Origin: Candidatus Iainarchaeum sp. | GTDB lineage: Archaea > Iainarchaeota > Iainarchaeia > Iainarchaeales > JAZDEL01 | Reading direction: 5' to 3' | Assembly (NCBI GenBank): GCA_043808785.1 | Contig: JAZDEL010000004.1 | Location: forward strand, 60,001-92,000 | DNA length: 32,000 nucleotides | Shown: one piece after another, positions 2,248-32,000 of the stretch | Layout of the letters: the number at the start of each line of letters is the position of its first letter | Numbering within the stretch: the stretch's first letter is position 1 | Notes under the pieces: generated by a model | Seen by the model: the letters and a program-made list of their open reading frames with translations, nothing else | Database searches by the model: none | Told to the model about the DNA's origin: nothing | Program-made: the position numbers and the translations under genes

Positions 2248-2248
2248 C

Positions 2249-12175: not shown

Positions 12176-15100
12176 GTGGTTCGCATGCCGAGGGACGACG
12201 AGGAAAAGCTGGAGTTCGGGGAAGAGGAGGATATCGGCGGGCCGGGGCTTGGGAGCGATGACGAATTTTCCGTGGCGGGGGATGAGGGGCTTGCGGGCGC
12301 GGGGGGCGCAGGCGGTGCCGGTGCAGGCGGGGGCACAGGCCTGCTCGGCGGAATCTACTCGAAAATAGAGGGCGCGTTCTTCGGAATCATGGATGCGCTG
12401 CAGAACCGCGGCATACCTGTCTATTCGGTAATTGAACCTTTGGAGAACCGCGGAATACCTTTTTTCCCCATGAGCATTGCGCTCGCGATTGTCGTGCTCT
12501 TCCTAGCATACGGCTTCTTTTTTGCACAGCCGCAGGAAGTAAGGCTGAACTTCACCATAATTGACGCGGCGGGGGAGCCGCTGGGCGGCGTGAGCGTGAA
12601 CATTGCCGGCGGCGGAATATCCGAAAGGGGCGTGTTCAAGGACCAGCAGGTGCTGATACTTAAAGGCGCGCATCTGGGGACGGAACTTGAAATAAAGGCC
12701 ACAAGGGCGGGCTATGCGGAATTCTCGAAAACCATGGTAGTGAGCGGAAGCGATAATGCGGTTTATGTGCAGATGAAAAAGGAAGCGGGCATAATAGTGG
12801 GGAAAATAAAACTTATAGACGCGGAAACCGACGACACCGTGGCGGCGGCGAACGTCACCGCGGAGTTCGCTGACGGGAGCACGGTGAACTGCAACTACGC
12901 GGGCAACGGCATTGTGGAATGCGCGGGCGTTGCCGAGGGGGAAAAGGCGCAATTGCACATAAGCACAAGCAATTACGAGGACAAGGATGCGGAAGTCGCG
13001 TTCTACGCGGACAGGGTGGACAGCATAAGCCTCGAGCCGAAGGGAGGGGCGAATGCGGGAACATCGAACCTTATTGTGAAGGTTACGGACGCGGACACAA
13101 AACTGCCGCTCAGCGGGGCGGGCATGCAGGTTTATGACGCGGCATCAAACGCGCTGATAAGCGAGGTTAAGTTTGACGCGGAATACGGCGAGGCAATTAC
13201 AAAGGGGACTTCGGTAAGGATTGTTGTCAGCGCGGACGGGTATGAAACTTACGATTCGGGCGCCGCAGCGGCGGGGGGTTCGGGCGCTTCAGGCTCTGGC
13301 ACTTCCGGCACGTCAGGCGGAACAAAAACAATGCGCAACGACGAGGAACCGTGGAATGTCGCGCTGCACAAGGGCGGAACAACCATGCACGTGACTGTGC
13401 AGGACGCCTCGGAAAGCGGGCTGCCGCTTTCGGGCGCGAAAGTTATGCTGTTCAATTCAAAGTCGGAACTATTGCAGGAATATGCGACAAAATTCGGCGG
13501 GGATGCGGAATTTGCAGGACTCGAGCCGCTGGCGGATTATTACGCTACGGCATACAAGGACGGCTATCTCCCCTCAAGAATCACGGCAAAGCCGAGCGAA
13601 AAAAAGGGCTACAAAATAGAGCTCGAGAAGGCCACAACCTCGAACTCCGGCCTGCTTGAAATTACGGCCGAGGATTCATTCGGAAATATAGGGAACGATA
13701 CACTGCTGAACATATATGAAATCGTGGGGGGGAAGAACCTGCCGCTCGGAATTGCGCAGCAGAGGTGCGATTATTTCGGAAAGGCGAACATAACAATTGC
13801 TGACGGGAAAACGGTTTATGTTTCCGCATCAAAGGGCGTTGAAAGCGGGGAGGGAACTGCAACAATAACCGCAAACTCGGCAAACCAGATAGCGATAAAA
13901 ATGAGGCGCCCCGCGGGGGTTGTCCTGCTTGTGCTGATGGAGGAAGGCACGGAAGTGAGCGACGGGAACGTGCTTGTGAAAACGGGGGCGGGGCAAACCC
14001 TGCTGAACGCACAGTACAAGACGGGGGGAATTGAATTTGTTGCGGGAACGAACAAATTCGTGAAACTCACATACACCTATCCCGACGGGAAAACGTTCAG
14101 GGAGGAGGTGAATGTTTCGGGAAAGGAGCGCGCGGAGGTGCAGGTCAGCAGGGAGGGCACGTCAGCATTCGCGCCAAAGCTGGAGTTTTTGGGGATTACC
14201 GATGCGTCCGGAAGGGAAGTGGAGGGCCTGGCAAAGGGCATGGATTATTACCTGAAATTCAGGCTTGAGATGCCGGAAGGGGAGTACAAGGGCGGAATGC
14301 ACGTGCGTTTGGGGGAGGATAGCGTGAAATATGCGGATTCCATGGATGCGGGAATAATAGGGTTCAGTGCTGTCGGCGCGGGGCACACGTACGGCAGGAC
14401 TTACTCGCCATTGCCCGAGCCGGGTTATGAGGGAATAGATTACATGAACAGGGGGCAAGAGGGCAAATACAACAAATGGCTTGAATTATATTTCAAGAGC
14501 GGCGGCTCGAAGAACGTAAAGGTCAGGGTTAAGGCAAAGGAGACCGCAACAAGCGATTCTATAGCCCTGCATTACAGGGCGTGGACCGAGGGCGGGGAGG
14601 GCGCATATTACAGGGAACCTGCTGATGAGGCGCTCGGGAATGAGAGGGCAAACAGTTTGCGCTCTTCCCTCTACGCGGAAACGAAAACCGCGGAGATAAA
14701 GATTTTCGACGAGTTCCCTAATTGCGAGAACGAACTCTGCACATCTTACAAATTCGTGAGGGAGGACGGCACGGAATATGAAACCGCGGATTTCAAGGCC
14801 GCGAAAGGCGGGCTGTACGCGCTTGAGATCGAGGTGAACCCCAGGGAGGCGGCAAACCTTGCAATAAAGGGCTCCACTGTGAAGGCAAGCCCGAAGATTG
14901 CTTTCCAGGGATATGCAATAAACAATTTCGCGGAATTCCCCGATACGAACAGCAGCGACACTTCGATAGAGGCAAAGGATATTGCGCTCACAAAGGACAA
15001 GGCAGTGAAGGTGAGGCTTTACTTCAAGGTTCTTGATATCGGGAACACGCACATAACCGTGCAGGCGCTCACGCAGAAAAGCGCGCTCACGGAGAATTTC

Positions 15101-18100
15101 TATTTCAATTCGTATGTGGAGAAGGGGCTTTCGGTTACCGTGCTGCCCGCGTTCGTTGCAACGGGCAAGGACTTCGAGGTCATTGTGAAGGGTGACGCGG
15201 GGGAGGGCGTTGAGAACGCGGTGCTGAAATTCAGGAACGCGTACAACGAACTGCTGCGCACGGTTTCGGGAGACGGAACGAAAGGGAACGGAATGAACGG
15301 GAGCTACACGATAAAGAATTCGTTCGATGCGGGAAAGATAGAACTTGAGGTCAGCGCCGACGGGTACAAGCCCGCAACAGTGGGGATTGAAATCGGCAAG
15401 GCGGGCGTGCTCGAACTGCCGGCGGAAGTGAGGATAATGATCCCCAAGGGGCAGGGGAGCGCGGAAACAAGGGTTGCGATAAAGAACAATTCCGCGAGCA
15501 TAGTGCAGAACCTGACGTTTGAGGTGAAGCCGAAGGGGGGTGTGCCTGACGGAATGGAAATAAGCGTCGCTCCCGTGACTTACATTTCCGCGAACTCCGT
15601 GCATTACGTAACCTTCCGCGCGGAATACCGGGGCAGTGAAGAGAGGGTGCATGCCGGCGCCGAGGTAATTGCGCGCGGCACACTTGAGGGAAAATACCCC
15701 GTGAACGCGAGCACGAATGTTATTGCGGATTACAACCCCAAGCTTGACAGCGAGTGCCTTGAACTAAGCAAGGAGAAGCTTGTGGTTTACCTCGCGAGCG
15801 GAATAAGCCAGCAGCAGTATTACAGCGGCCTGTATAACTCGGGATATTACGCCACGCAGGATTACCTCACGAACGCGCAGGGATACAATAACCAGTATTA
15901 CTCGCAGTACGGGCAGAGTTCATACAACCCCACGCAGGACCAGTATTACCAGTACAATGCGTACACCGAGCACTCGGAAGTGAAGGTGACTTTGAGGAAC
16001 AAGTGCAATATCGCGCTCACAATTACGCCCGAGGCTGTTGCAGCGGAGAACGTGGACAGCGAGATAAAGATAGAACTGGATAAGGAAATAACGCTGGAGG
16101 CCGCGGGCAGCGAGAGCGGCGGGAGGAAACTTGACGAGAAGGAAATAACTGTCATTGTTACGGACAGCGTGATGAGGAATTATGACACAAGCCGGCAGTT
16201 CGATTATGAGATATTCTTCCGCTCGGACGCGCTGACAAAATCCCTGCCATTGGAGGTTTACATATGGAACCCGGCGTATGCGCTGCAGGCGAACAGGAAC
16301 ATAGAGCTGTGGCTTGCGGAGAGCGTGCCCGGGCAGCAGGCTACTGCCGCAACCCCTCTCCTTATCAGGAACGTGGGGCAGGCGGATATTGAGAATATAA
16401 ATTTCCAGGTTGTGACCTCGGCAAGCGCCGGCTCCACAACGGCAAGCATAGAGCCAAGGTACGCGACAGCTGTTCTGCACGTGGGGGAAAGCATAACCCC
16501 TCCTCCTGTGCTGGTTGCGAAGGCGATAAGGGACCAGAAGGCAACACCGGGGGATGTTGTGAAGATAGACATAAAGGGAACCATAGGCGGAAGGTCGTAT
16601 TATTTCGGGCCGATAAATGTCACAACTCACGTGAGCCCGCCCGAATGCATAAAGGTCACGCCCTCTGATGTTTCATTCAGCAGCACAGTTTGCGAGGAGG
16701 GCGCCCTTGAGAGGGACATAACTATTACGAACCACTGCGCGGACGCTGTCAGCATACGCGGGATAAGCCCGGACAATATTTCGGGGAACATGCTTGTGCT
16801 CGGCGCGGGCGCGCAGTATATTGAGGCTGGGCGGGAGGTAAAGGCGAAATTAGTGCTTGACAAGAGGCAGTGCTATGACGGGCCTACGGAGCCTGTGGTG
16901 CTGAAGGGCTTCCTGATGAGGACACAGCGCTGGATCGATTCGAACCCCATAAACCTTAATGTGAAAATAGGGAAGCGCGCGGGAAAGGCGGAAACCGCGG
17001 CGCAGGTTGTTACAGTGGAGGTCTGCGCAACCACGGGGAAAAAGGAAACGCGCGAGGTTTCATTCCCCGTAATTGCGGCAGGCGCGAACTGCGACAGGGC
17101 ATACTGCGATGCGCAGCAGATGGCGCAGTACCTTGCGGGGATAATAGAGACAAAAATAAAGGACGTGAAAAGGCAGGTGGCAAGTTACGGCGCGGATGCA
17201 CAGAAGGCGCAGTGCGGGAACAACGCATATGAGGGGTATTGCACATTCGAAAGTTTGGGCATAGGGAGCGCGGACATGGAACTGTTCTTCCAGAACGACA
17301 CAATGAGCGACGGCATGCTTGAGAGCGAGATGGAAAAGAAGGGGGCGGAACTGAAGGGCTACTCAGTGGAGTACACAAGCCCGGGCGCAAATGCGGGAAG
17401 GAACATAGGGGCATACGGGAAGCGCGTCTGGCTAACGGATTCCTTCACAGGCTGCGGGAGGTATGTGGTGAATGTTACCGGCGCGGTGAGGGTGCAGGGC
17501 GCGAGGCTTATGCCGGATTATATTTCGGTTGTAGTGGAAATGCATCCCGAGAAAGGGGGCAGTGCGCGCGAGATAACCGAGCAGTGCACGCCGAAGATAC
17601 AGAACATAATGAATTTCCTGCCCGTGGATAAGGGCTATGGCACGGGGAACTCGCAGTACAGCTGGCTGGGGACTGTTGTTGCCGATGAGGAGGAATACAA
17701 AAGCCTCGGGGAGGAGGTTGCAAAATCATTGTTCGGGGACAAGAAGAGGTTTGTGGAGAGCAGCAGCACTAACAGGCTTGAAATAAGGAAGGGCGTTGAC
17801 GAGGGCTATGTGGCAAAGGTTAGCATGGAGCGTGTCGGGGATGCGCAGCCGATGGCGGTTTACGCAAACATAAAGGTGGCGGCGGGGGCGAAACAGCAGG
17901 ACATTGCCACGGAGGCTGCAAAGGCGATCAGGGGGCTTGGCGGCGCGAGCATTGACGGCTGCATCGCGCCCGAGGGAGAGGACAATTACTTCCTGCTAAG
18001 GGCGGCAACAGGAATGGAGGAACTGGAGATAGGCGAGTGCACAAATGCGCTTGGACAGAAGGATGTGCTGAACGTGCTCTACAACAAGGAAAGCTGCTGT

Positions 18101-20158
18101 GAGTTCACGGTTTACGGGGTTATGGCGGAGACAATAACAGTTGGCGCAACTGTCAGGAGCGACACCCCCTCGGGAATAGGGAAGGTTACAGTCGTGCCTG
18201 TTGCGCCGGAACCAACACAGCAGAAGAAGGGGGAAAGCGCCACAACCGAGGTACCGCTCGGGGCTGTTTCCGCTTCCGGTGCCGCACAACAGAAGGCAGA
18301 TGTAAAATCAGTTGCCGGTGAAATTTCCTCCCCTACAGGCATGGCATTGCTTGCGGATGAGGAAGGGGCGGCGGATGCCGGGCAGCCAGATGGCACGGCT
18401 GAAAATCCGCCTGCAAACGGCGGCACCGCAACCCCGCAGGGCGGAGGGCAGAAACCCGCGGCAGCGGAGCAGGGCACGGGCGCCGCGCAGGAAAAGGCGC
18501 CGGCACAGCCGCAGGCAAAGCCCGCTGTGCAGGACAGCAGGGCGGGGAAGTACGCGGCAAAAATGAAACTTTGCGTCACGGGAAACCAGAGCCTGCAGCT
18601 CGCGCAGGGCAAGGAGATTCTTATTAACGCGCAGGCAAGGTCGAAGGCGAAGAGCCAATTGGACGCGAAAACCCGCAGCGTTAAGGTGCAGGTCTGCGGG
18701 ATAAACCCGAACAGGCTTGCGGGAAAGATGGAAGGATTAAAGGCGGGGGATGTGAGGTATGCGATGCTTGTCTGGGAGGGCGCGCCCGACAGCCTGACTT
18801 TAAACGACATAAAGATTTCCACGGATGCGGAAAAACTCAAGGCAAGCATAGAGGCGAAGATAAACAAAAACGATTTCAGCGAGGTGAAGAGCGAGGATGC
18901 GCAGATGAAGCAGGACGCGATTTTGTATTACTACATGCCCGCGTGCTCGGCAACCGCAGCGGTTCTGGGGTTTTTAACAAAAGGGTGGCCGGGCATATTC
19001 ATCGAACCCACTGTTGACTGCGTCATACCCGGCGCACTCGCATACCTCGGGCAGACATCATACGGCAACAGAGCCAAGGAGAATTTGTACGGTTATTTCG
19101 AAAACATAAAGGGGCTTTCCCCGGAAATCATCAAGCCATACCTCGGCTGGCTTGAGAGTTTCATGAAGGGCAATTCCCCGCTGGAAACCGGAAACACGGA
19201 GGGTGCGGTGGACGACGCCAGGGTGGCGGCAACTGTGTCAATAAGCGCCAGGGCAGCAGGAAAGATTGTGGCAAACAAATGGGAGGCAATATTCCCCAAA
19301 TCATTTACCAGCCTCCTTAAGAACAGCGCGTACACGGGCATAATAACCGGCGCGCTTTCGAACGCGGCGGGGCTTTATTTCTACGATAAACATATCGCGC
19401 AGGAAACCGCGAAAAAGCAGGGCGGGGCAGTGCAGACAGGGAACCAGCCGCAGAATGTGGATACAACAGGGGACGGAAAGAACGACACAACCGTGCTTTA
19501 CCAGGGCTCGGGAATAACTTTCGATAAGTACGGAACATACAAGATTTCGCGCACGAAGCAGGGGCTGGATGTCAAGGACGTTTACGAACCTGTCGCAGGC
19601 CTGCCAGAGGGAACAAAGCCCGAGCAGATGCTTTGCGATGCGCAGAGCATGTCCCTGCCTGCGGGCGGCGCGGGCATACTCCCAGACCCTAACCGCCCGC
19701 CGAGCGGTGCCGGGGTGCCGCAGCATTACTACGCGATTTTCAATTACCTCGACAGGTATTCGGGAATGATACACGGCGCATCGGTTGCAAGCGGGGTGCC
19801 CGAGGCGCTGCTTGTCACTGTCGCGATATGGAAGGGGGAACTTGACACGCGGACGCCGAGCGATGCGTGGATAACGGGATGCAACGCGAAGGCTGCGGAT
19901 GCGAAGGCATGGAGCGCCGCGGACAAGAGCTTCGGGTGCGCGGCGAAACAGCTGGGCGAAGATATGGCATCGTGCGGCGGGGATTACTCCGAGGAAATGG
20001 TTACCTGCGCGCTGAAACTTTACAACAACCGCGACAGCGACAAGGGCGCGAACCAGTTCACGCCGATGAGCGACGCCAAGTACGCGGAATACTACGCGAT
20101 TTTCAGCGCGTGGAATGCGTATCCGAAAGGCGCAACGGGCAAGGTTACGGCAGGCTGA
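12176..20158 (+). CDS. Giant membrane-anchored surface protein 1 (2660 aa): acidic/Gly-rich N-terminus, conserved GIPVY motif + TM helix, multiple CarboxypepD_reg/Ig-like beta-sandwich repeats, Q/N/Y-rich segment, A/P/Q-rich linker, C-terminal hydrophobic segments and a lysozyme/SLT-like tail
   Basis: An uninterrupted 7983-nt ORF; the likely true start is ATG 12185. The TM helix is PMSIALAIVVLFLAYGFFF. Repeats of ~70-90 aa of the type LIVKVTDADTKLPLSGAGMQVYDA...VSADGYETY and MHVTVQDASESGLPLSGAKVMLFN...AYKDGYLP match the carboxypeptidase-regulatory-like pattern. It is paralogous to the genes at 21702 and 30271. Confidence 0.85.
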   Translation: MVRMPRDDEEKLEFGEEEDIGGPGLGSDDEFSVAGDEGLAGAGGAGGAGAGGGTGLLGGIYSKIEGAFFGIMDALQNRGIPVYSVIEPLENRGIPFFPMSIALAIVVLFLAYGFFFAQPQEVRLNFTIIDAAGEPLGGVSVNIAGGGISERGVFKDQQVLILKGAHLGTELEIKATRAGYAEFSKTMVVSGSDNAVYVQMKKEAGIIVGKIKLIDAETDDTVAAANVTAEFADGSTVNCNYAGNGIVECAGVAEGEKAQLHISTSNYEDKDAEVAFYADRVDSISLEPKGGANAGTSNLIVKVTDADTKLPLSGAGMQVYDAASNALISEVKFDAEYGEAITKGTSVRIVVSADGYETYDSGAAAAGGSGASGSGTSGTSGGTKTMRNDEEPWNVALHKGGTTMHVTVQDASESGLPLSGAKVMLFNSKSELLQEYATKFGGDAEFAGLEPLADYYATAYKDGYLPSRITAKPSEKKGYKIELEKATTSNSGLLEITAEDSFGNIGNDTLLNIYEIVGGKNLPLGIAQQRCDYFGKANITIADGKTVYVSASKGVESGEGTATITANSANQIAIKMRRPAGVVLLVLMEEGTEVSDGNVLVKTGAGQTLLNAQYKTGGIEFVAGTNKFVKLTYTYPDGKTFREEVNVSGKERAEVQVSREGTSAFAPKLEFLGITDASGREVEGLAKGMDYYLKFRLEMPEGEYKGGMHVRLGEDSVKYADSMDAGIIGFSAVGAGHTYGRTYSPLPEPGYEGIDYMNRGQEGKYNKWLELYFKSGGSKNVKVRVKAKETATSDSIALHYRAWTEGGEGAYYREPADEALGNERANSLRSSLYAETKTAEIKIFDEFPNCENELCTSYKFVREDGTEYETADFKAAKGGLYALEIEVNPREAANLAIKGSTVKASPKIAFQGYAINNFAEFPDTNSSDTSIEAKDIALTKDKAVKVRLYFKVLDIGNTHITVQALTQKSALTENFYFNSYVEKGLSVTVLPAFVATGKDFEVIVKGDAGEGVENAVLKFRNAYNELLRTVSGDGTKGNGMNGSYTIKNSFDAGKIELEVSADGYKPATVGIEIGKAGVLELPAEVRIMIPKGQGSAETRVAIKNNSASIVQNLTFEVKPKGGVPDGMEISVAPVTYISANSVHYVTFRAEYRGSEERVHAGAEVIARGTLEGKYPVNASTNVIADYNPKLDSECLELSKEKLVVYLASGISQQQYYSGLYNSGYYATQDYLTNAQGYNNQYYSQYGQSSYNPTQDQYYQYNAYTEHSEVKVTLRNKCNIALTITPEAVAAENVDSEIKIELDKEITLEAAGSESGGRKLDEKEITVIVTDSVMRNYDTSRQFDYEIFFRSDALTKSLPLEVYIWNPAYALQANRNIELWLAESVPGQQATAATPLLIRNVGQADIENINFQVVTSASAGSTTASIEPRYATAVLHVGESITPPPVLVAKAIRDQKATPGDVVKIDIKGTIGGRSYYFGPINVTTHVSPPECIKVTPSDVSFSSTVCEEGALERDITITNHCADAVSIRGISPDNISGNMLVLGAGAQYIEAGREVKAKLVLDKRQCYDGPTEPVVLKGFLMRTQRWIDSNPINLNVKIGKRAGKAETAAQVVTVEVCATTGKKETREVSFPVIAAGANCDRAYCDAQQMAQYLAGIIETKIKDVKRQVASYGADAQKAQCGNNAYEGYCTFESLGIGSADMELFFQNDTMSDGMLESEMEKKGAELKGYSVEYTSPGANAGRNIGAYGKRVWLTDSFTGCGRYVVNVTGAVRVQGARLMPDYISVVVEMHPEKGGSAREITEQCTPKIQNIMNFLPVDKGYGTGNSQYSWLGTVVADEEEYKSLGEEVAKSLFGDKKRFVESSSTNRLEIRKGVDEGYVAKVSMERVGDAQPMAVYANIKVAAGAKQQDIATEAAKAIRGLGGASIDGCIAPEGEDNYFLLRAATGMEELEIGECTNALGQKDVLNVLYNKESCCEFTVYGVMAETITVGATVRSDTPSGIGKVTVVPVAPEPTQQKKGESATTEVPLGAVSASGAAQQKADVKSVAGEISSPTGMALLADEEGAADAGQPDGTAENPPANGGTATPQGGGQKPAAAEQGTGAAQEKAPAQPQAKPAVQDSRAGKYAAKMKLCVTGNQSLQLAQGKEILINAQARSKAKSQLDAKTRSVKVQVCGINPNRLAGKMEGLKAGDVRYAMLVWEGAPDSLTLNDIKISTDAEKLKASIEAKINKNDFSEVKSEDAQMKQDAILYYYMPACSATAAVLGFLTKGWPGIFIEPTVDCVIPGALAYLGQTSYGNRAKENLYGYFENIKGLSPEIIKPYLGWLESFMKGNSPLETGNTEGAVDDARVAATVSISARAAGKIVANKWEAIFPKSFTSLLKNSAYTGIITGALSNAAGLYFYDKHIAQETAKKQGGAVQTGNQPQNVDTTGDGKNDTTVLYQGSGITFDKYGTYKISRTKQGLDVKDVYEPVAGLPEGTKPEQMLCDAQSMSLPAGGAGILPDPNRPPSGAGVPQHYYAIFNYLDRYSGMIHGASVASGVPEALLVTVAIWKGELDTRTPSDAWITGCNAKAADAKAWSAADKSFGCAAKQLGEDMASCGGDYSEEMVTCALKLYNNRDSDKGANQFTPMSDAKYAEYYAIFSAWNAYPKGATGKVTAG
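12402..12460 (+). repeat. Intragenic direct repeat encoding the duplicated NRGIP unit
   Basis: AGAACCGCGGCATACCT (12402..12418) and AGAACCGCGGAATACCT (12444..12460) match at 16 of 17 nt and are 42 nt apart. They encode QNRGIPVY and ENRGIPFF. Confidence 0.7.
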
Positions 20159-20164
20159 TTCCGC

Positions 20165-20218
20165 CCGCGGAAAACAAACCACTGAACCGCGGTTTCGCGT
20201 GTTGTTTTTGTTTTTTCC
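20165..20218 (+). terminator. Putative terminator after giant gene 1
   Basis: Two self-complementary CCGCGG blocks (20165..20170 and 20187..20192) can pair. They are followed by the T-rich tract TGTTGTTTTTGTTTTTTCC (20200..20218), an archaeal-type oligo-T signal. Confidence 0.4.
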
Positions 20219-20265
20219 CATTCCCGCGGAACAGGCGGGCGGGCAAACAATTATTAATCATATAA

Positions 20266-21615: not shown

Positions 21616-21640
21616 GGTTAATATAAAAGTAATATAATTA
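21616..21640 (+). promoter_or_regulatory. TATA-like promoter elements of giant gene 2
   Basis: GGTTAATATAAAAGTAATATAATTA lies 60-85 nt upstream of ATG 21702. The leader contains a 7-bp-stem hairpin, AACGCGC-AGT-GCGCGTT (21645..21661). Confidence 0.35.
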
Positions 21641-21701
21641 ACTTAACGCGCAGTGCGCGTTTGTCGGTTAGGCGGGTGCAGGCCGGGGGAAGTGTGGGCA
21701 C

Positions 21702-24700: not shown

Positions 24701-27700
24701 GGCGGCGCTCGAACTCACTGTTAACGAGAACATACTCAATGTGAAGCCGCAGAAGATTAAGGAAACGCTCACGCTCGGCAGCGAGACAAAGAAGGAGGTC
24801 GTGATAATCCTGCGGAACCTCACCGTAATACCGCTCGCGCTCGAGGAGATGCAGGCGAGCGGCGAGTTCAAGGATTATGTCGCTTTCGATTTCGGGAAGG
24901 TTGCCGCAGGTGCGCTGATTGATGTCAATGCCGACTCGAACGCAACCTTCGGGATTTCGGTAACTGGAAAAGGCAATAACATAACCGCGCCGAAAACAAC
25001 AAGCGGCTCAGTGGGGATTTATGTAAGCAATCCCGAGTTCGGCAGGACATGGGTTACGCAGGTGCCTGCGGAAGTCAGGATAGGGTTCGGTGCCGAGGTT
25101 GACGATGCCGAGTGCTTTGGCTTGTATCCGACAGACTGGAAGCTGTTCACGGGCACCGCAAAGAAAACACTTGCCGTGACTCTCACGAACTCGTGCACGG
25201 TTTCGGGGGAGCCTGTTGCGCTGAAGAAACTGCAGGCGCGCTTAGTCCCGAGTGCGCAGAACGAGCTCGGAAAGTTCAGGGTTTCATCCGAACTGAACGA
25301 GGGCGGTGCTGTAGAGCTCTCGAACAAGTTCCAGACAATTACAATGAACGTGCCCGCGGGGGAAAGCGCCTCGGAGCCCGCACAGTCGGCCCTTACCCTC
25401 GAGTTCCTGCCAGCGGACATCGCTTCCGGCGGCGGGGAGTTCACGCTGGAGTTCGTTGCCGTTAATTACACCGAAGGCGGGGACGAACAATTGAAGCAGA
25501 AAATAAAGGCGGAGGTGCACATAGACAACCTTGCGCAGTGCGTGGAGATAGTGCAGGACAGGGATTTGGTTATCGAGACCGCTGGCTACAACACGGGCTG
25601 GGGGAATTACGGGAATAATTTCTGGAACGGCGGGAGCAACAATTATTTCAACCCTATGCAGAACACGTGGCAGAACTACGGGATGGGGGCACAGAATTAC
25701 GGCATGGGGATGCAGAATTATGGCGGCGCGAACCCGATGATGGACACAACATACCGCGGCACGGGAACGCCGAATTACATGGGCAGTTACAATTACCTGA
25801 GCCAGCAGTATTACCCGAGCGCGAGCTGGAGTTACCCTTTCCAGGCATCGGATTATTACGACAGCAGGGCATCGAGTTCATGGGGCGTGGGGGGAAGCGG
25901 AACGCAGTACGGAGGGGCGACAAAATTCACGGTGAAGAACAACTGCGCATCGGGCGTGGATATAGAACTTGATGTTGACCCCGCGCTGACGGTGCAGGAC
26001 GGCAGTTTCAAGATAGACAGCACCGCGGGGAAGGATGTTGAAGTTAGGTCGGCTTACGCGATAGGGAGGTACGCGATAAAGGTAAAGGCGAAGGTTGCGG
26101 GGAGCACCGAGGCTGCAGCGGAAGTGAAAACCGTTTATGTCACCGTGGAGAACGCATACACGAAAAATTACATGGACTGCATAAGCGTCGAGCCCGCGCG
26201 CACGATAAAGTTCAACGATTTCCTCGCGAAGGCGCAGACGCTTACCGTGACAAACACGTGCTACAACGAGGGCGTGAGGCTTATGCCAACGACAAGCGGC
26301 ATAAATTTCAGCGGCGCAAGCACGCCTGTGCAGAGCGAGGGAGTGGGGAGCGAGGTAGTGAAGCAATGGGCCGTGCTGGGCGCGCCGATGTACCAGTCCA
26401 TGGCTGACGGGAAGGTGATGGAGAAGGTAAAATACGAGATAATAAAGAACATAGCGTGGCACGACAGGGCGAAGCAGCAGGTCTCCGCCAACAACCCCGT
26501 AAGGGTTATTGCGAACATAAGGTACGAGGTAAGCGCGGCATATTACGCCGTCGAGGAGCGCACTACACTTTACGTTAATTTCACGAACAAGTACGGGCAG
26601 AGCCAGAGCGTGCCATTCAGCATGATACTCGAGGATTACTGGGAGCTGGGGCCCTTCGTGGAGCAGTATGCCCCGACTTTCGGGAGCGCGTGCCCAAGCA
26701 ATTCTTGCATCAACACGGATGCCATGAACTTTTACAAAACCTACAACGGCGACTGCATACCCGACGAGCACCTGAACAGGGTTTTCAGCAGCGCGGACAA
26801 CGGAGGAGTGATGAAGATTTCGCAGAACGCGCGCGACCCGAAAACGGGGGCGCTTGTGGAGACGAGCGGGTTCGGCAGCGGGGACACGATAGCCGAACTC
26901 ACGGTTGTGGGGGACGCGGATGACGGAAAGACGGACGGCTGGATTAATATCGGGCACGGGGCAAGGGCGCAGTTCACGATTGCGAAGGGCAAGCAGAACA
27001 TAAATATGAAGCTGGATTTGAGCAACCGCGACGGGGAGAAGATTGACGGCTCGGTTAAGCTGCTGTTCACGATAAACAGGATGAGCCCCGGCCTGAAGTC
27101 CGCGGAACAGCACAGCATAATGGTGACATTCTGCATAAAGGCGGGAAAGACGGGGAAGGCGCTGACGGAGGAGGAGAAGCTGGCTGATGCAAGGACACCG
27201 AAACCCGCGGTTTCCGCGGGCGGCGTTAAGTGCGATACCGGCGGAGCGTTCGGGAAGTACGGGTTCGATAAGTTACTGTGGGACTGGAGATTTACGGGGG
27301 ACAATGTTGAAAACGGAAGCGCGGTAACAAGGCTGGCGTGCAACTCGCAGAAGTGGGACGGCGCAACAAACACCATGATCGACAACATGAACGGCGCGAA
27401 ATTCTGCGACGGAACGCAGTTCATGATTACGCTGGAGAAGAAGGCGGAGATGATAGCAAACATTCTGAATGCACACAGTGGCGAATTGTCGTGCGGCTTC
27501 TGCGGCACTGACGCACAATACAGGACTTCGGAGAACCTCTGGAGATGGGCACTGAAGCAGGTCGCTGTGCCAGATGCATATGCCGGAGATACGTTCTATT
27601 TTATTCTTGCGGATGCGGGCGAAGGAAAACTTGAGGTGCTCGAGAGAAGCGGCAAGATTGGCGCTTCGGAAGCAAAAGAATTCCCGCAACTGGCAATTAC

Positions 27701-29480
27701 AGCCACGGAAGTGACGAATGAAAGCGGGAAGAGCAATGCGGCGGAAATATTCACCAGCGTAACAGCCACACTCCGGAACACAGAAAACCAGAAGAAGGGA
27801 TGGTTCTCGGATGTTCTTGCGGTTGTCAAGGATGAAACTGGTGACAGCCAGGGCCACAAGGAAGCATATGAATCGCTCGGCATGAACCACGTCGAGCTCT
27901 ACAATAAAAAAGACAGAAATGAAGGCACAATAGGCGCCTGGTTTATGACCCTTGGAGAGTTCTATGCCCTGGATAAGGCGATAAAAGAGGCAGGGGACCA
28001 ATGCAAAAGCGGCACGTGCACATTCAAACTGGCACTCTGGGACGATAAAACAAAAACTAGGGTTCCAAAAGACATTACACTTGACTCAAAAGTCCTACAG
28101 GACATATATAAAAATATTGAGTTCGTTTACGGAATAAGGAACTATGCGGGCACGACGCCTGCCGAGAGGGACGAGGCGATGCTGAACGGGGCATCAGTTG
28201 TGCCAAACCTCCTGCAGTTCTATAAGGAAAACATAGATTTCCAGGCGCTGCTGATAAAGGACGGATACGGCAAGGGCTTCACCGCGGACTTCAAGGCGAA
28301 GTATCCGAATGAGATAATAAACGACGGCGCGGGATGGAACTTCACCAAAGGCGCGCTTGCGGAATCGGGAAACTACTCCGCGCTGCTGAACTACAAGTGG
28401 GATAAAGATATGAAAGCAAGCGGCGTGGATGTCACTGCCGTGAAGAAGCAGGGGCTTGCGGATATCGACGGCAAAAACGAGCCGAAAACCGCTTACGTGC
28501 AAAACCCGTTCATGAACATGGCGTTCGACGGGGATGTGGGGCTGGATAAGGATGGAGTGTTCCGGAGGAGCGGCTACGGCATTTTGATGAAGCTTGAGAA
28601 GTATGAGGGCGAAGCCGTATATGCGCGCTACAGTGCAAACCCGTCATATGCCGCCGAGTATAAAATGAACAAGGTGGGCTCCACTGGCGAACCGCTGAAT
28701 ACGTATTCCCTCCACTACAATTACGACTGGGAAAACACGAGCACGGGGAGGATTCTTGAATTAACAGGCAACACCGTAAAGTTCAACCCCACAGATCCCG
28801 TCGTAATAAACCTGCAGATAGACAATAAGGGGCCGCTCAAAAAGGAAACCATAGGGTTTGTTTACGACATCAGCAACAAAGTGTGGAGCCTGAAGACGCT
28901 AAGCAAAGACGGCCGCGCTAATCCGCTGGATTGGATAGTGCAGCAGAACTCAATGGGCGGCACGAAAACAGACGGCGACACGATAAAAGGCGAGTTGGAA
29001 CACCCATGGGGCATTTGCTTTGCCAGGGGGATCTTCAACGACCCCACAGTCTCATACGAGGCTGAGCACGAAGGCCACCTAATACTGAGAAGCATTGTTT
29101 ATGCGCCAGTGAATGTGACATTTGAAGGGGCAAAGCAAAACAAAATAGGGCCGACAAAATTCGAGATATTGTGCACGGATGACCGCATCCAGAAACAGAA
29201 CATAACAATCCTTGACGATAAAAGCACGGTGTTGCCTAGTGCGAGCGGCACCGACCGCCTTAACGGCACGGAAGACAACAGGCTGTCCACGCACTACACT
29301 TGGAAACAGTTGTTCGAGATGATAAGCGACAACGGCACCACTATTGAAAAAATAGGCCCTAGCCAGAGGGCGAATTATGTGTGCGTAGACACAAGCAATG
29401 GCGGAATGACGCTTTTGTGGAACGAGGATTACATACTGAACCAGCTCTCCCCAACTGGCGAGGCACCTAAAGGGAACTGA
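21702..29480 (+). CDS. Giant membrane-anchored surface protein 2 (2592 aa), paralog of giant 1
   Basis: An uninterrupted 7779-nt ORF. The N-terminus is LYRSLENKYYDFLDMLEARGIPVYKLVNAIEAQNIPTFP followed by the TM helix IAILLSIAVLALLAWGIAG. At least 6 CarboxypepD_reg-like repeats are present (e.g. LAVTVQDERGAPVEDARLVLKL...GRARFERLEAGTYYVYAYKPGYG). The mid-region is homologous to giant 1, and there is an N/Q/Y/G-rich segment. Confidence 0.85.
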   Translation: MAENTGLYRSLENKYYDFLDMLEARGIPVYKLVNAIEAQNIPTFPIAILLSIAVLALLAWGIAGILAPAQGTLTVVVQDSGGSALSGAIVTVTPASGQSLPPTTTNRDGEAKFGVPLNQLIKAEAKKEGHSTESESTTVSAQEGKVLIILSEETGTEHKTISLVKYGTNELVRDSVTVQFSCSGSGWKATETTTNGRIELDVPGDCGTMYAFPQGGYSTSNDSFGSGDAFTMYLSQEEAGKGIVIASVTDKDGKTISGIDVSLFEEGMGRVITLTTPASGMLTFKNIPAGRYYPVTYDATGTYAEYDGSESGNVKSLQAGGSVEFGIVLGKAAVGTIKIYARDKETLEGISGAKISLSKGGTQIKDEFTGNDGKVTLYVGEDVAYDVTIDKAGYLIENLNGIMPSADFREVMLAKATEQNSRSLAVTVQDERGAPVEDARLVLKLASDGTPVGSELVTGANGRARFERLEAGTYYVYAYKPGYGDGSSAPVTVSGREEATAKVTINIGEGGIGASVLDEQGQPVGGARVRLVNARAMETMQDSVADAQGYVKFGVRIDKKVFLIASSQGFMQHTTVPLQAAKDTTQDIEIRLVKAVPNLQVKLLGIYTGGQQVGESDGMLNAGGLYTAKLQLLIPEGASFNEAGVHVRTGAADSTIMEKDYLYITNVRAAYSSVMRGTSYNPPNGYAKDAEHLTSGNAKWANVNFTQVGGGVYDVEADIQVSGAAANGTALDLWYRGWGKAGSYVRFPADTALGGAESNAEKQALYAQANNRHYTAGIASPCYGNFCANFLIEDLDEGLKTAVIDEYVARAGGRYSLAFSVNSISESVFGGAKLKIYDSTGSLALGDYEILTAAGENKKGAGKGGLVELDIGDISKDGVVQGRVNFSAVKEGTALLEVSVVSDAEKVFTQEIRFNIEPAKAMVVEVVPKVIVPYVNNNMLIHVADESGASIANARIALLKDGAIIADGETDSSGVFPYTLLAPSAGSVLRIEAEKTGYKKAALELTVNENILNVKPQKIKETLTLGSETKKEVVIILRNLTVIPLALEEMQASGEFKDYVAFDFGKVAAGALIDVNADSNATFGISVTGKGNNITAPKTTSGSVGIYVSNPEFGRTWVTQVPAEVRIGFGAEVDDAECFGLYPTDWKLFTGTAKKTLAVTLTNSCTVSGEPVALKKLQARLVPSAQNELGKFRVSSELNEGGAVELSNKFQTITMNVPAGESASEPAQSALTLEFLPADIASGGGEFTLEFVAVNYTEGGDEQLKQKIKAEVHIDNLAQCVEIVQDRDLVIETAGYNTGWGNYGNNFWNGGSNNYFNPMQNTWQNYGMGAQNYGMGMQNYGGANPMMDTTYRGTGTPNYMGSYNYLSQQYYPSASWSYPFQASDYYDSRASSSWGVGGSGTQYGGATKFTVKNNCASGVDIELDVDPALTVQDGSFKIDSTAGKDVEVRSAYAIGRYAIKVKAKVAGSTEAAAEVKTVYVTVENAYTKNYMDCISVEPARTIKFNDFLAKAQTLTVTNTCYNEGVRLMPTTSGINFSGASTPVQSEGVGSEVVKQWAVLGAPMYQSMADGKVMEKVKYEIIKNIAWHDRAKQQVSANNPVRVIANIRYEVSAAYYAVEERTTLYVNFTNKYGQSQSVPFSMILEDYWELGPFVEQYAPTFGSACPSNSCINTDAMNFYKTYNGDCIPDEHLNRVFSSADNGGVMKISQNARDPKTGALVETSGFGSGDTIAELTVVGDADDGKTDGWINIGHGARAQFTIAKGKQNINMKLDLSNRDGEKIDGSVKLLFTINRMSPGLKSAEQHSIMVTFCIKAGKTGKALTEEEKLADARTPKPAVSAGGVKCDTGGAFGKYGFDKLLWDWRFTGDNVENGSAVTRLACNSQKWDGATNTMIDNMNGAKFCDGTQFMITLEKKAEMIANILNAHSGELSCGFCGTDAQYRTSENLWRWALKQVAVPDAYAGDTFYFILADAGEGKLEVLERSGKIGASEAKEFPQLAITATEVTNESGKSNAAEIFTSVTATLRNTENQKKGWFSDVLAVVKDETGDSQGHKEAYESLGMNHVELYNKKDRNEGTIGAWFMTLGEFYALDKAIKEAGDQCKSGTCTFKLALWDDKTKTRVPKDITLDSKVLQDIYKNIEFVYGIRNYAGTTPAERDEAMLNGASVVPNLLQFYKENIDFQALLIKDGYGKGFTADFKAKYPNEIINDGAGWNFTKGALAESGNYSALLNYKWDKDMKASGVDVTAVKKQGLADIDGKNEPKTAYVQNPFMNMAFDGDVGLDKDGVFRRSGYGILMKLEKYEGEAVYARYSANPSYAAEYKMNKVGSTGEPLNTYSLHYNYDWENTSTGRILELTGNTVKFNPTDPVVINLQIDNKGPLKKETIGFVYDISNKVWSLKTLSKDGRANPLDWIVQQNSMGGTKTDGDTIKGELEHPWGICFARGIFNDPTVSYEAEHEGHLILRSIVYAPVNVTFEGAKQNKIGPTKFEILCTDDRIQKQNITILDDKSTVLPSASGTDRLNGTEDNRLSTHYTWKQLFEMISDNGTTIEKIGPSQRANYVCVDTSNGGMTLLWNEDYILNQLSPTGEAPKGN
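25671..25727 (+). repeat. Three tandem QNYG(M/G)G units inside giant gene 2
   Basis: The stretch encodes QNYGMGAQNYGMGMQNYGG. The underlying DNA units are CAGAA(C/T)TA(C/T)GG(G/C)ATGGGG. Confidence 0.7.
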
Positions 29481-29484
29481 AACC

Positions 29485-29997
29485 ATGAAGCCCCAAATCC
29501 TCATTGCAATCCTTCTCGGAGCCCTGCTGTTCGGCATGGGCGCTTTTGTTTCGTATTTCTTCAGCCTCGGGATAACGCCATTCAGCCTCGGCTTCGGCGA
29601 AATTGTTGATCTGGCATTGCTCACGCTTGTTGTGCTTGTTTCATCGCTTTTCCTTTTCGGCTATGCGGGCGTCTTCGTTCTTTTCCTCATAGGCACGACT
29701 TACGGGCAGAGCCTGATGCTTAACCCGCTGATTGCGTGCGTTTCCGCAATACCCCTGCTCTTCGCGCTTGTTGCGGGGAATTTCACGGGAATTTTCCTGC
29801 GCGATGATATGGATGAGAAAAGCAATGTAAGGGACCAGAGGTTCTGGATTTCCGCGCTTATTATTATTGCAGTTGTGTCGGCGGTGCTTGTTGCTATCGC
29901 AATCCCGATGCTTCCGCAGGTAACCGTGAATGTGAGCGAACTGCTTTCCGGCTTCCAGCAGGCACAGCCCTCCGGAAGCGGGCTGCCCTTCGGGTAA
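29485..29997 (+). CDS. Polytopic (about 5-TM) membrane protein of unknown function
   Basis: 170 aa with five hydrophobic stretches: ILIAILLGALLFGMGAFVSYFF, LALLTLVVLVSSLFLFGY, VFVLFLIGTTY, LIACVSAIPLLFALVAGNFTGIFL and FWISALIIIAVVSAVLVAIAIPML. It starts 4 nt after the giant gene 2 stop, so it is probably co-transcribed. Confidence 0.65.
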   Translation: MKPQILIAILLGALLFGMGAFVSYFFSLGITPFSLGFGEIVDLALLTLVVLVSSLFLFGYAGVFVLFLIGTTYGQSLMLNPLIACVSAIPLLFALVAGNFTGIFLRDDMDEKSNVRDQRFWISALIIIAVVSAVLVAIAIPMLPQVTVNVSELLSGFQQAQPSGSGLPFG

Positions 29998-30164
29998 GCG
30001 GCGATTAACCGGTGCGGGCGGCGTACAGTTCGGGCAGGGGCAGCGCGCTAAGGGGCAAAGTTAACCCGCATATGCTTGTTTCGGCTTTTGGTTCCGATTT
30101 TCTACATAACCAAAAAACGTGCGCAGCGCAAAAAAGGCGCAAACGGCGCGCAATCGGCGCACCA

Positions 30165-30199
30165 GAATATATAAATAGTTATTGAAACTAATTAATTAG
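30165..30199 (+). promoter_or_regulatory. TATA-like promoter region of giant gene 3
   Basis: GAATATATAAATAG (30165..30178), followed by the perfect 12-bp palindrome CTAATTAATTAG (30188..30199), lies 70-105 nt upstream of the start. Confidence 0.3.
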
Positions 30200-30270
30200 T
30201 GAATAATGAGTGAAATCGCCGCGGTTGCGCGCAAAATTTTGCCTGCGGCGGCGAAAGGGGGATGCCGGGC

Positions 30271-32000
30271 ATGGGCCTTAAAGAGATATACAGGGGAATG
30301 GAAAACGGCTATTATTCGTTCCTTGACTCCCTTGATGCCAAGGGAATTCCCGTTTACAAAATCATAGACCCTATAGATAAAATTGTCCCGTCGCTTGCGC
30401 TGCTGCTCGGGTTCGTTGCTCTTGTTATAATCGCGGGGCTGTTCCTGCTTATCGCGCCGATGGTTGTGCCGCAAGCATCGACACTGAAAATAAATGTTGC
30501 GGATGAGGGGGGCACGCCGATTTACAGGGCGAAGGTTACGTTCACGCTTGATGAAAAAACCACTGAAGCGGAAACGGATTACGAGGGAATGGCGCAGCTG
30601 GAGAATGCCGCTGTCGGGAAAAAGGTTTCCGTGAGCGCGGGGAAGGGCGGCTACCTGACGGAAAGCGCGGAGATTGAAATTACCGAGGCGCCGGTGCAGC
30701 TGCGCACAATCACCCTCAAGGAGGAAAGCGCGGCATACGAAACAAAAACGATAAGGCTTGTCGATTCCGCGGGCGCATCGCTGATGGAAAGCTTCGTGCT
30801 GAAGTTCACGTGCTCGAACCCGTACGCGGAACCGCCTGCGGATGTTTACCTCCAGCCCTCGGATTACGGCACGGCAACAGTGAGGGTGCCCACAAACTGC
30901 GAAACCCTGCGCGTAACAGTGAAGGACGGCACGGGCTACGCGGATTACGGGCCTGTTGATGTAAGCGGGAGCGACAAGACAATAACCCTCAGCGCGGCGG
31001 AGCGCGGGAAGGGAATGATTATCGCGTACGTGAGCGGCGAGGAGGGCACGCCGCTCAACGGCATAACAGTGAACCTCTACAGGTATGACGATATTGCCGA
31101 TAACCCGAACGTGGGGCCCATAGATTCGGAATACAGCTACGGGGGGAAGGCGGAATTTTCAAAGGCCGCGGGCAGTTACGTGCTCCGCACCTATGACGAG
31201 GAGGGCACTTACGGCGAACAGCAGTCCCCGAAAATCGTGCTGATTGACGGCGATACCGTCAGTTACGGTTTCACCCTGAGCGCAAACGTGAAGGGGAGCA
31301 TAAAAATAAAGGTTACTGATGCGGACACGGATGAGGCGATTGAGAATGCGGATGTCACGCTCGCCTATGAATCGAGCGGCAACGAACTTGCGGGGATGAA
31401 AACCGATGAAGATGGGCTTGCCGAGTTCAACATAAGCAGGGACGAAACATACAAGGCGACGGCGTATGCGGAGGGCTACTCCTTAGGCACGCTCTCGGGG
31501 CTGAGGAAGTCCGCTGACCAGTACACAATCGAACTCGAAAAATGCACCCCGAGCAGGTGCGGGACACTGAAAGTGCTTGTGATTGACGAGGAAAATGTGC
31601 CTGTGCAGAACGCGATTGTCGTGCTTTACGACGCGGGAAAGAACTGGCTTACAGGCTATGGGGAAAGGCTTTCGGACATAAACGGCGTTGCGGAGTTCAA
31701 GGGCGTGAGTTCCGGGAATTACTGGGCGTTTGCTTTCAAGGAATCGGCATCGGGGAGAAGCGATGCCGCGTACTTCTCCTCGCGCTCGCAGGGTTCGGGA
31801 GCAACGCTGACTGTTGCAATGCAGATAGGGCAGGGCGTTATCAGGGCGAGGATTACGGACAAGTACGGCGAGCCTGTGCCTTTCGCGGGAGTAGATGTAA
31901 GGAATGCCGCGGACGGGGGGGAGATAGGCGCTTCCCTCGGCGACGCGAACGGGATTTTCACAATCGAGACAAAGGCTGACAAGCGCGTTTATTTGGTTGT
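30271..32000 (+). CDS. Giant surface protein 3, N-terminal >=576 aa (runs off the window end); absent from the ORF track
   Basis: My manual translation of this frame found no stop from 30214 to 32000. The N-terminus is MGLKEIYRGMENGYYSFLDSLDAKGIPVYKIIDPIDKIVPS followed by the TM helix LALLLGFVALVIIAGLFLLIA. CarboxypepD_reg-like repeats follow (IKIKVTDADTDEAIENADVTLAY...AYAEGY; LKVLVIDEENVPVQNAIVVLYD...). GGGGG lies 9 nt upstream of ATG 30271; ATG 30262 is an alternative in-frame start. Confidence 0.75.
   Translation, partial: MGLKEIYRGMENGYYSFLDSLDAKGIPVYKIIDPIDKIVPSLALLLGFVALVIIAGLFLLIAPMVVPQASTLKINVADEGGTPIYRAKVTFTLDEKTTEAETDYEGMAQLENAAVGKKVSVSAGKGGYLTESAEIEITEAPVQLRTITLKEESAAYETKTIRLVDSAGASLMESFVLKFTCSNPYAEPPADVYLQPSDYGTATVRVPTNCETLRVTVKDGTGYADYGPVDVSGSDKTITLSAAERGKGMIIAYVSGEEGTPLNGITVNLYRYDDIADNPNVGPIDSEYSYGGKAEFSKAAGSYVLRTYDEEGTYGEQQSPKIVLIDGDTVSYGFTLSANVKGSIKIKVTDADTDEAIENADVTLAYESSGNELAGMKTDEDGLAEFNISRDETYKATAYAEGYSLGTLSGLRKSADQYTIELEKCTPSRCGTLKVLVIDEENVPVQNAIVVLYDAGKNWLTGYGERLSDINGVAEFKGVSSGNYWAFAFKESASGRSDAAYFSSRSQGSGATLTVAMQIGQGVIRARITDKYGEPVPFAGVDVRNAADGGEIGASLGDANGIFTIETKADKRVYLV

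Follow-up and report, generated by a model that had tools for sequence, protein, structure and literature searches.

What is encoded by the very large genes in the window analysed here, which is the whole stretch of 32,000 nucleotides from positions 60,001 to 92,000 of contig JAZDEL010000004.1 (Candidatus Iainarchaeum sp., assembly GCA_043808785.1), and do these genes belong together with the small genes located between them? According to the open reading frame (ORF) map five genes, all on the + strand, extend from 12.2 kb to the window end: giant gene A, the pilin-like gene P, giant gene B, gene T for a small membrane protein, and giant gene C. An earlier interpretation of the letters without database searches, in the following called the sequence-only reading, had regarded them as a candidate cell-surface system. 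This interpretation is supported by the present analysis, in which we infer the extracellular location of the giant proteins as well as any role of them in host attachment. The genes are real, old and selected, and they are syntenic across the phylum Iainarchaeota (Diapherotrites). The gene order in relatives is A-P-B-T-C-D, which indicates that the window shows part of a six-gene unit. It contains most of the gene cluster, namely two giants and a fraction of the third, out of four, plus P and T; the fourth giant gene D and the downstream part of C both lie beyond the window end and are known via the relatives. The gene set of the sequence-only reading was right for A, P, B, T and C and incomplete with respect to D. 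The features of the cluster are the following:

12185..20158, + strand: giant gene A, 2657 aa from the ATG at 12185; a GTG at 12176 opens the ORF (2660 aa)
12353..12526, + strand: A, IPVY motif (12353-12469) and single transmembrane helix (12470-12526)
13061..15439, + strand: A, stalk with four detectable CarboxypepD_reg-like beta-sandwich repeats and conserved mid-region
14564-14638, + strand: A, mid-region peptide ALHYRAW...REPADEALG
15797..15964, + strand: A, Q/N/Y-rich low-complexity linker, aa 1205-1260
17087..17170, + strand: A, 'NC..YCDAQQ...L' motif, which opens the alpha/beta domain (aa ~1620-2010) and is aligned to the FCDxTQ motif of B
18185..20155, + strand: A, P/A/Q-rich linker (18185-18532), then C-terminal region
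20287..21555, + strand: gene P, pilin-like, 422 aa (NCBI V1676_03665; P0178 is 100% identical)
20287-20409, + strand: P, predicted class III signal, MRTQCRKGFTPFTAPRG before and FTLFTALVAFILIVL after the cleavage site
21702..29480, + strand: giant gene B, 2592 aa, identical to P0001, a protein from a Candidatus Diapherotrites archaeon metagenome-assembled genome (MAG)
21720..21899, + strand: B, IPVY motif (21720-21836) and transmembrane helix (21837-21899)
21909..24761, + strand: B, stalk with six CarboxypepD_reg-like repeats and conserved mid-region
21909-22148, 22422-22661, 22701-22943, 22962-23219, 23226-23480 and 24507-24761, + strand: B, the six repeats (aa 70-149, 241-320, 334-414, 421-506, 509-593 and 936-1020)
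23892-23963, + strand: B, mid-region peptide LDLWYRGWGK...FPADTALG
25584..25865, + strand: B, Q/N/Y/G-rich low-complexity linker, aa 1295-1388
25878..29477, + strand: B, distal half with KYGFDKLLWDW (27252-27287) and FCDGTQF (27402-27455)
29485..29997, + strand: gene T, polytopic membrane protein of 170 aa with 4-5 helices
30271 (or 30262)..>32000, + strand: giant gene C, 576-579 aa within the window, cut by the window end
30286-30393 and 30394-30468, + strand: C, IPVY motif and transmembrane helix
12116..12145 (A), 20245-20274 (P), 21617-21646 (B) and 30166-30195 (C), + strand: AT-rich TATA-box-like 30-mers, putative promoters as sequence features alone

The sizes of the three giant ORFs (A counted from its GTG) agree with those given by the sequence-only reading, the genes are intact, and the homologous mid-region peptides as well as the Q/N/Y-rich segments quoted there were found again at the positions listed. 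Public gene calls begin A at the ATG at 12185, and protein P0098 is identical to A. A separate AT-rich promoter patch had been claimed for each gene; it is present in front of A, P, B and C and lacking in front of T. A scan for bacterial sigma-70 promoters and terminators gave counts near the shuffle expectation, and because the consensus is bacterial it is uninformative for an archaeon.

For the locus scan each GTDB species was represented by one genome, and nine aligned B orthologs served as query. Of the 63 loci recovered, nearly all come from MAGs with the label Iainarchaeum or Diapherotrites, and a few from MAGs labelled Micrarchaeota. The complete genome GW2011_AR10 (CP010424.1, in the following AR10) and Ca. 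Iainarchaeum andersonii SCGC AAA011-E11 are included. The recurring order A-P-B-T-C-D emerges from the gene calls near the B orthologs and from the ORF maps of all loci. In the relatives A comprises ~2470-2930 aa, the P homologs, of which there are one or two, 367-620 aa, T 150-190 aa and C ~2370-2660 aa. Complete orthologs of the C in the window measure 2444-2659 aa. D, which follows C, is 2312-2381 aa long according to the gene calls. Linkage was counted for those loci that offer enough flanking sequence. Of 26 informative loci 25 have P upstream of B, the sole exception being a frame-broken assembly, and in 18 of 20 C lies downstream of B. Behind B a T-like gene was counted in 15 of 22 loci; under strict criteria A was detected ahead of B in 14 of 22, a number that is too low. 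The linkage of the giants to the two small genes is conserved.

Giants and small genes are maintained as separate lineages. In pairwise alignments A and B share 24% identity across ~920 aa (E 9e-30), and C is 30% identical to B across all 579 aa (E 1e-54). Altogether the paralogs among the giants are merely 22-30% identical, whereas orthologs in other genomes reach 31-88%. Each genome holds its own ortholog of A (35-79% identity), P (34-73%), B (31-76%) and C (38-87%). The ratios of nonsynonymous to synonymous substitution rates, computed against the closest relative (locus L006), are 0.17 for A, 0.25 for P, 0.18 for B, 0.16 for T and 0.10 for C. The distinct orthogroups together with these low ratios indicate that the duplications are old and that all copies are maintained, as the sequence-only reading had assumed, and purifying selection on intact genes is not what frameshifted pseudogenes would display.

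The most original element of the finding is the anchor motif at the N-terminus of the giants. A, B and C share the motif [LI]Y..hE..[YF][YF].hhD.L...GIPVY.hh..h[ED]...IP.F, which is followed by the only strong hydrophobic helix of each protein, and the claim of a common N-terminal motif plus one transmembrane helix is confirmed for all three. A single transmembrane helix is also predicted for D and for more distant 'X' types. We define the IPVY-anchored family by [LI]Y..hE..YY.hhD.L...GIPVY...D.hE...IP.F within the first ~120 residues, followed by a single transmembrane helix; A, B and C belong to it. A hidden Markov model (HMM) of the motif, whose construction the sequence-only reading had proposed, was built with 64 columns and matched 1071 representative clusters (clustered at 50% identity) at E<=1e-3 and 595 at E<=1e-10. 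This required an exhaustive HMM search, since a k-mer search with the motif gave merely 23 short fragments and was uninformative. In all of the best 150 of the 1071 clusters the motif is located within the first ~120 residues, usually the first ~70, and full-length members of the family mostly comprise 2000-3100 aa. A itself carries an acidic, Gly/Ala-rich extension of ~55 residues (12185-12350) ahead of the motif, which has an occupancy of 0.08 in the A-type alignment.

The same anchor is found on other proteins. A Micrarchaeota-labelled MAG (L063, 10007-11584) encodes a complete protein of 525 aa that combines the IPVY motif and the transmembrane helix with a Peptidase_C25 domain (E 1.5e-13); judged by eye, its short stalk region apparently consists of one beta-sandwich domain. 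In other archaeal lineages tandem pairs of giants with the same anchor and unrelated distal regions were found (the adjacent MCD4740340/41 and MFC2174420/21), one of which is named by NCBI for thrombospondin type 3 repeats. The occurrence of the motif in 1071 clusters, on a C25 peptidase and on giants with unrelated distal regions fits a generic surface-display anchor that is not specific for A-D, and by its distribution over these sequences the motif looks like a general N-terminal anchor of this kind. Some family members differ at the other end. The B-type protein P0069 (3046 aa) has an extra C-terminal module that by eye resembles a CAP/SCP-like tail, and P0100 (2877 aa) bears the NCBI name 'thrombospondin type 3 repeat-containing protein'. 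These extra C-terminal modules suggest modular heads.

Behind the anchor the giants continue with a stalk. CarboxypepD_reg (PF13620) scores 58.9 bits in A, 127.2 bits in B and 73.6 bits in C, which is above the gathering score of 32.3 bits in each case; the assignment is a domain label and not a function. SpaA, SdrD_B, Big_1 and bMG3 overlap with it in the giant stalks, likewise above the gathering score. An iterated repeat HMM detects six copies in B and four in A, and the same six positions are occupied in full-length relatives of the C and D types. Five to six repeats had been claimed for all three proteins, and the domain itself is present in each. In the ortholog alignment of B, numerous positions with Cys, Gly or Pro do not vary. 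The single transmembrane helix, the adhesin-type stalk and these invariant residues point to a type II orientation, with ~2,400 residues probably outside. N-x-S/T sequons had also been called frequent and taken as a sign of exposure. This did not hold, as A contains 16 against 15.2 expected and B 19 against 20.5 expected from composition, and sequon frequency is no evidence for an extracellular location.

Past the stalk, where the sequence-only reading had recognised no catalytic motif, no Pfam, NCBIfam or PDB-sequence match was obtained, and sub-segments searched at E<=1 gave none either. The AlphaFold2 model for residues 1393-2592 of B, for which 29 sequences were used, reached a mean predicted local distance difference test score (pLDDT) of 77.5 and a predicted template modelling score of 0.59. 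It comprises three Cys-containing ASH/PapD-like beta-sandwiches, an alpha/beta region with the conserved elements KYGFDKLL.DW and FCDAxQF..L..K, and a C-terminal beta-rich domain. Foldseek found 69 matches of the model in the PDB at E<=1e-3, all of them Ig-like or ASH-MSP-PapD-like sandwiches. They belong to Hydin/CPC1 central-pair proteins, an SPD-2 domain, chaperone-usher chaperones, cadherins and SbsB, with E-values down to 2e-8. The query-normalised template modelling scores (TM-scores) are at most 0.11, so that the matches cover the sandwich part of the model only. In a Foldseek search of BFVD, too, generic Ig-like matches dominated.

The model of A 1600-2657 is poor (pLDDT 52), with moderate confidence only at aa ~1620-2010 and 2120-2200, and Foldseek gave no structural match for it below E 0.3. 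The C-terminal region of A after the P/A/Q-rich linker shows weak conservation, no family match and low model confidence. Within its last ~120 aa a domain of the SLT/lysozyme type was considered by eye ('GVPEALLVTVAIWKGEL...') and rejected; there is no Pfam match at E<=1, the pLDDT is below 45 and no Foldseek match lies below E 0.3. Full-length profile comparison with hhalign (alignments A3 and A5) recovered the N-terminal homology alone. When the families of A and B were compared locally over their C-terminal halves, a further link appeared with a probability of 82% and E 1e-5, in which the '[FY]CDAxQ' motifs are aligned. These profiles indicate a distant homology of the two halves by way of a CDAxQ module. 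The paralogs accordingly share one plan, in which the anchor is followed by the stalk, a low-complexity hinge, sandwiches that contain Cys, the CDAxQ alpha/beta module and a variable head.

The two small genes had been described as a protein with a class III (prepilin-type) N-terminus and a protein with several membrane helices, and both descriptions apply. The N-terminus of P follows the pattern M-x(3-10)-[KR]-[GA]/F-[TN]-L-[FY]-T-A-L-[VL]-x-F-[IV]-L-I (the slash marks the cleavage site), which 36 orthologs have preserved. Class III signals are defined by a short positively charged leader, the [KR]-[GA] cleavage motif and a hydrophobic helix of ~20 residues; P possesses all of these and is pilin-like by its predicted signal. 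Behind the signal follow a long conserved helix and a globular domain with an invariant Cys pair; P has no Pfam or PDB match. The family comprises 78 clusters, and its source names are all 'hypothetical' or 'uncharacterised', from Diapherotrites, Micrarchaeota or unclassified archaeon MAGs. The P of the window contains an imperfect direct duplication of 9 aa (27 nt) of the cleavage-site region (20302-20345; RKGFTPFTAP / RGFTLFTAL), which is absent from the closest relative and all other orthologs. It yields two candidate [KR]G/F sites, and the hydrophobic helix follows only the second.

T has 4-5 hydrophobic helices and the conserved elements FFG, NP, PL..A..G and DL.GK.N.F. Its start lies 5 nt past the stop codon of B, for which reason it is probably co-transcribed with B. 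A relation to SpoIIM/DUF95-like or protease-type proteins was considered and dropped, as a Pfam search of 14 orthologs at E<=1 gave scattered sub-threshold matches to unrelated membrane families. The ortholog alignment shows no catalytic set of conserved His, Ser or Glu residues.

These observations are best explained by the following mechanism. The giants, apparently without a cleavable signal peptide, would be inserted as type II membrane proteins via their N-terminal helix, which leaves the IPVY motif (~40 residues) in the cytoplasm and exports the large remainder. As Pfam and the model show, the exported part forms a long stalk of prealbumin/Ig-like beta-sandwiches; a flexible Q/N/Y/G-rich hinge, disulfide-stabilised ASH/PapD-like modules and a subunit-specific alpha/beta plus beta 'head' would follow. 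Since each giant has its own ortholog in a fixed gene order, A-D appear non-redundant and most likely cooperate, either in a single hetero-oligomeric fibre or in several fibres that make up a defined set. The shared motif and transmembrane helices, T and the N-terminal hydrophobic helix of P may form a common membrane base, and P may be cleaved by a prepilin peptidase encoded elsewhere. By analogy to Ig-repeat surface proteins the distal heads could bind partner cells, particles or polymers, which would make the assembly an organelle for attachment or contact, or else an outer coat of fibres. The parts of this explanation are not equally strong. That the giants are membrane-anchored extracellular structural proteins is highly probable, and that the four giants, P and T constitute one co-functioning membrane-based surface assembly is probable. 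Whether this assembly serves as an attachment or contact fibre is, on grounds of analogy, evenly balanced.

Several points weigh against this explanation. T is missing in a few clusters (L001, L014 and L030). Neither Pfam nor Foldseek reveals a recognisable binding or enzymatic fold in the head domains, hence the term 'adhesion' rests on analogy. The best structural matches, the ASH domains of Hydin/CPC1, belong to cytoplasmic eukaryotic proteins, so the fold alone is no proof of export. The N-terminus of the giants is net acidic, and the positive-inside rule is indecisive. Genes for a pilus ATPase, a PilC/FlaJ platform or a prepilin peptidase were found neither in the window nor in the loci L001-L006 and L070/L071, whose precomputed Pfam lists span +/-10 kb. 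To our knowledge, Iainarchaeota are not established as episymbionts or as host-attached cells.

The main competing explanation, which we regard as unlikely, is that A-D are the equivalent of a cell envelope, an S-layer or a fibrous sheath, with a chiefly structural role. Single-copy orthologs that are present phylum-wide in a fixed order are what is expected from housekeeping envelope parts and not from adhesins with fast turnover, and the purifying selection measured on the genes fits as well. The four giants would take up ~2.5% of the 1.24-Mb genome, a value derived from the AR10 record and typical gene sizes, and Micrarchaeon Mia14 is reported to devote 2.5% of its genome to four surface-layer proteins (PMC5498576). 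The S-layer protein SbsB is among the Foldseek matches (E 1.9e-5); however, this match is of the generic Ig-like kind with a TM-score of 0.08-0.12. The giants show neither a Sec signal combined with a C-terminal transmembrane segment or PGF-CTERM nor a match to an S-layer model of Pfam or NCBIfam, by which archaeal S-layer proteins were defined. Their homologs carry generic names alone ('carboxypeptidase regulatory-like domain-containing protein', 'hypothetical protein') and fall into no S-layer or named adhesin family of Pfam or NCBIfam, so that the giants did not turn out to be an ordinary S-layer or adhesin family. The hinge-and-head architecture argues in the same direction, and four hinged subunits of ~280 kDa are unlike the lattice-forming S-layer proteins we know of. 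Less probable is an accessory role of the cluster in a type IV pilus-like machine, in which P polymerises or primes a short pilus or pseudopilus, the ATPase, platform protein and peptidase are encoded elsewhere and the giants act as pilus-associated adhesins or stators. The conserved prepilin-type signal and long N-terminal hydrophobic helix of P would suit this, as would its position nearly always adjoining B, and the type IV pilus loci of archaea are known to have large adhesin-like proteins alongside them (PMC4858521). On the other hand, the giants have transmembrane anchors of their own and no class III signal, and P is large and usually single-copy, by which it resembles minor pilins or anchored pilin-like proteins more than a major pilin. 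T2SSE/FlaI (PF00437) and PilC/FlaJ (PF00482), which together define a type IV pilus locus, are absent from the window and the inspected loci.

Comparably improbable is the explanation that A-D are independent adhesins, which are adjacent merely through tandem duplication and have P and T as unrelated neighbours. The tandem giant paralogs with the same anchor and different heads in other archaeal lineages and the lone giant elsewhere in AR10, which is described below, are in line with it. Against it, genomes whose orthologs have diverged to ~30% identity still keep the order A-P-B-T-C-D and the four orthogroups, far longer than synteny usually survives without selection, and T abuts the stop codon of B. 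Finally, the large domains could be cytoplasmic (N-out/C-in) and form a membrane-tethered intracellular scaffold, as the top Foldseek matches to cytoplasmic ASH-domain proteins (Hydin, CPC1, CEP192) and the lack of an evident cleavable signal peptide in the giants might suggest. This is very improbable, because the modules contain invariant Cys residues, which suggests disulfides, the stalk matches Pfam families named after surface proteins and adhesins (CarboxypepD_reg, SpaA, SdrD_B, Big_1), the partner P has an export-type signal, and the same anchor heads a protein of the gingipain family (Peptidase_C25). Gingipains are secreted or surface proteases.

Giant surface proteins of DPANN archaea are already known (PMC10266531, PMC5498576). 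The SPEARE proteins of Nanohaloarchaeota, e.g. SVXNc_0300 with 9,409 aa (PMC10266531; Hamm et al. 2019, as cited there), resemble A-D as very large membrane-bound ectoproteins with tandem Ig-like or fibronectin-like domains and a proposed function in cell contact, encoded by DPANN genomes of ~1 Mb. They are single genes for 6,000-9,400 aa with a Sec signal, a VirB4/TraG-like ATPase domain and a neighbouring VirB4-like ATPase (PMC10266531). A-D are in contrast four paralogs of ~2,500 aa with an N-terminal IPVY anchor and linked genes for a pilin-like and a small transmembrane protein, by which description the two are set apart. Measured against the SPEARE definition (>5,000 aa, a VirB4/TraG-like ATPase domain, which was first annotated as protease/endonuclease, and an adjacent VirB4-like ATPase gene), the giants of the window remain at 2,592-2,657 aa, none of the giants contains an ATPase, protease or nuclease Pfam domain, and the cluster has no ATPase gene. 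Giant1-5 of Apilactobacillus kunkeei are, according to the abstract of PMC12863079, likewise consecutive genes for extracellular giants in a small genome, of which they take up a few percent (6% of 1.5 Mb, compared with ~2.5%). By the same description they differ from A-D in being bacterial, 3,000-8,000 aa long and differently anchored, and no pilin-like partner appears in that abstract.

With the MSCRAMM and pilin-type adhesins of Gram-positive bacteria (SpaA, SdrD_B, CarboxypepD_reg, Big_1) the giants share a beta-sandwich rod that presents a distal head. The former carry a Sec signal at the N-terminus and are attached to peptidoglycan by a C-terminal LPXTG sortase anchor, while the archaeal giants have an N-terminal transmembrane anchor with a conserved, presumably cytoplasmic motif, and unrelated heads. 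P resembles archaeal class III signal peptide proteins in its leader, cleavage motif and helix, and differs from them in its size, in a globular domain without Pfam or PDB match and in the lack of adjacent assembly genes. Its mature N-terminus FTLFTAL is similar to the bacterial GFTLIE type, with Thr and not Glu at +5. The likeness of the Cys modules of B to ASH/MSP/PapD-like proteins (Hydin, CPC1, the SPD-2 domain of CEP192, chaperone-usher chaperones), their best Foldseek matches with E 2e-8 to 1e-4, is at fold level only, with 6-16% identity over the listed matches and TM-scores of at most 0.11, and is uninformative on function. A census of archaeal type IV pili makes no mention of DPANN or AR10 (PMC4858521). 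A full-text literature search found no description of the cluster or of the IPVY motif; as its coverage is incomplete, an earlier mention is possible.

The cluster varies among the loci. In L006 an 821-aa DNA methylase (N6_N4_Mtase + NmeDI_C; 5980-8445) is inserted between A and P, which indicates that the cluster tolerates the insertion of mobile or defence genes. Three more divergent Iainarchaeota (L028, L034 and L037) contain a P-like gene of 474-483 aa and then only two giants in the available sequence, the first of ~2300-2570 aa and the second D-like and cut by the locus end in all three. This variant may be a reduced or ancestral form. In the divergent genome of L070 the last giant is followed by five genes for small polytopic membrane proteins of 88-134 aa (17612-19457), and further downstream a protein of 505 aa is encoded (22409-23926), which shows the canonical signal of archaeal pilins (MAQGTVEYLVII) as well as a faint match to Glug. 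These proteins may be further components of a surface assembly. AR10 contains a second locus (L053, CP010424.1 294792-317017) with a lone IPVY-anchored giant of 2166 aa amid apparent housekeeping genes; the IPVY family is hence not confined to the six-gene cluster. At other lone-giant loci (L055, L057, L058 and L064) the conserved small genes behind the giant were considered as functional partners and rejected, as by eye their N-terminal sequences are housekeeping-like (a P-loop GTPase among others), and the synteny at these loci is taken to reflect close genome relatedness and not function.

The region in front of the cluster is of a different kind. The GC content is 0.41-0.48 in the first 10 kb and 0.50-0.58 from there to the window end. 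Positions 1-11860 encode an RNase H-like exonuclease, a PD-(D/E)XK protein, a winged helix-turn-helix protein, a PIF1 helicase fused to WYL and a GNAT protein, as well as an N6/N4 DNA methylase, a 158-aa ORF and a ResIII helicase, which resemble a type III restriction-modification trio. This part looks like a defence or mobile island, and none of the genes of the first ~11 kb recurs beside the cluster in other genomes. In the gap before A an ORF of 56 aa lies on the - strand (11857-12027; MAKPIRATPTLVGDEAVRFLDRMKKKEAEARL... from an internal ATG), convergent with the GNAT gene, whose product may be a small DNA-binding or antitoxin-like protein.

Envelope building and cell contact are largely obscure in DPANN archaea and especially in Iainarchaeota, of which we know no cultured representative. 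As DPANN genomes are tiny, a block of ~31 kb that is conserved under purifying selection must do something central. The set of six genes A, P, B, T, C and D now offers a handle on it, as do the IPVY tag, which retrieves >1,000 related surface proteins from metagenomes, and specific predictions on topology, pilin processing and hetero-oligomerisation. A more far-reaching proposal, which we put forward as speculative and rather unlikely to hold in full, is that the IPVY motif is the recognition tag of an unrecognised archaeal anchoring or sorting system with T and P as its dedicated base. The four 280-kDa subunits would then be joined in one hetero-oligomeric fibre organelle, the main interface of Iainarchaeota to partner cells, and the tag would display other cargo such as the C25 peptidase in related DPANN. 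Such a tag would be analogous in function to sortase/LPXTG, archaeosortase/PGF-CTERM and the C-terminal domain of the type IX secretion system, from which it would differ in being N-terminal and membrane-retained. If it is true that the IPVY motif is a sorting or anchoring signal, this would represent a new mechanism of surface display in archaea.

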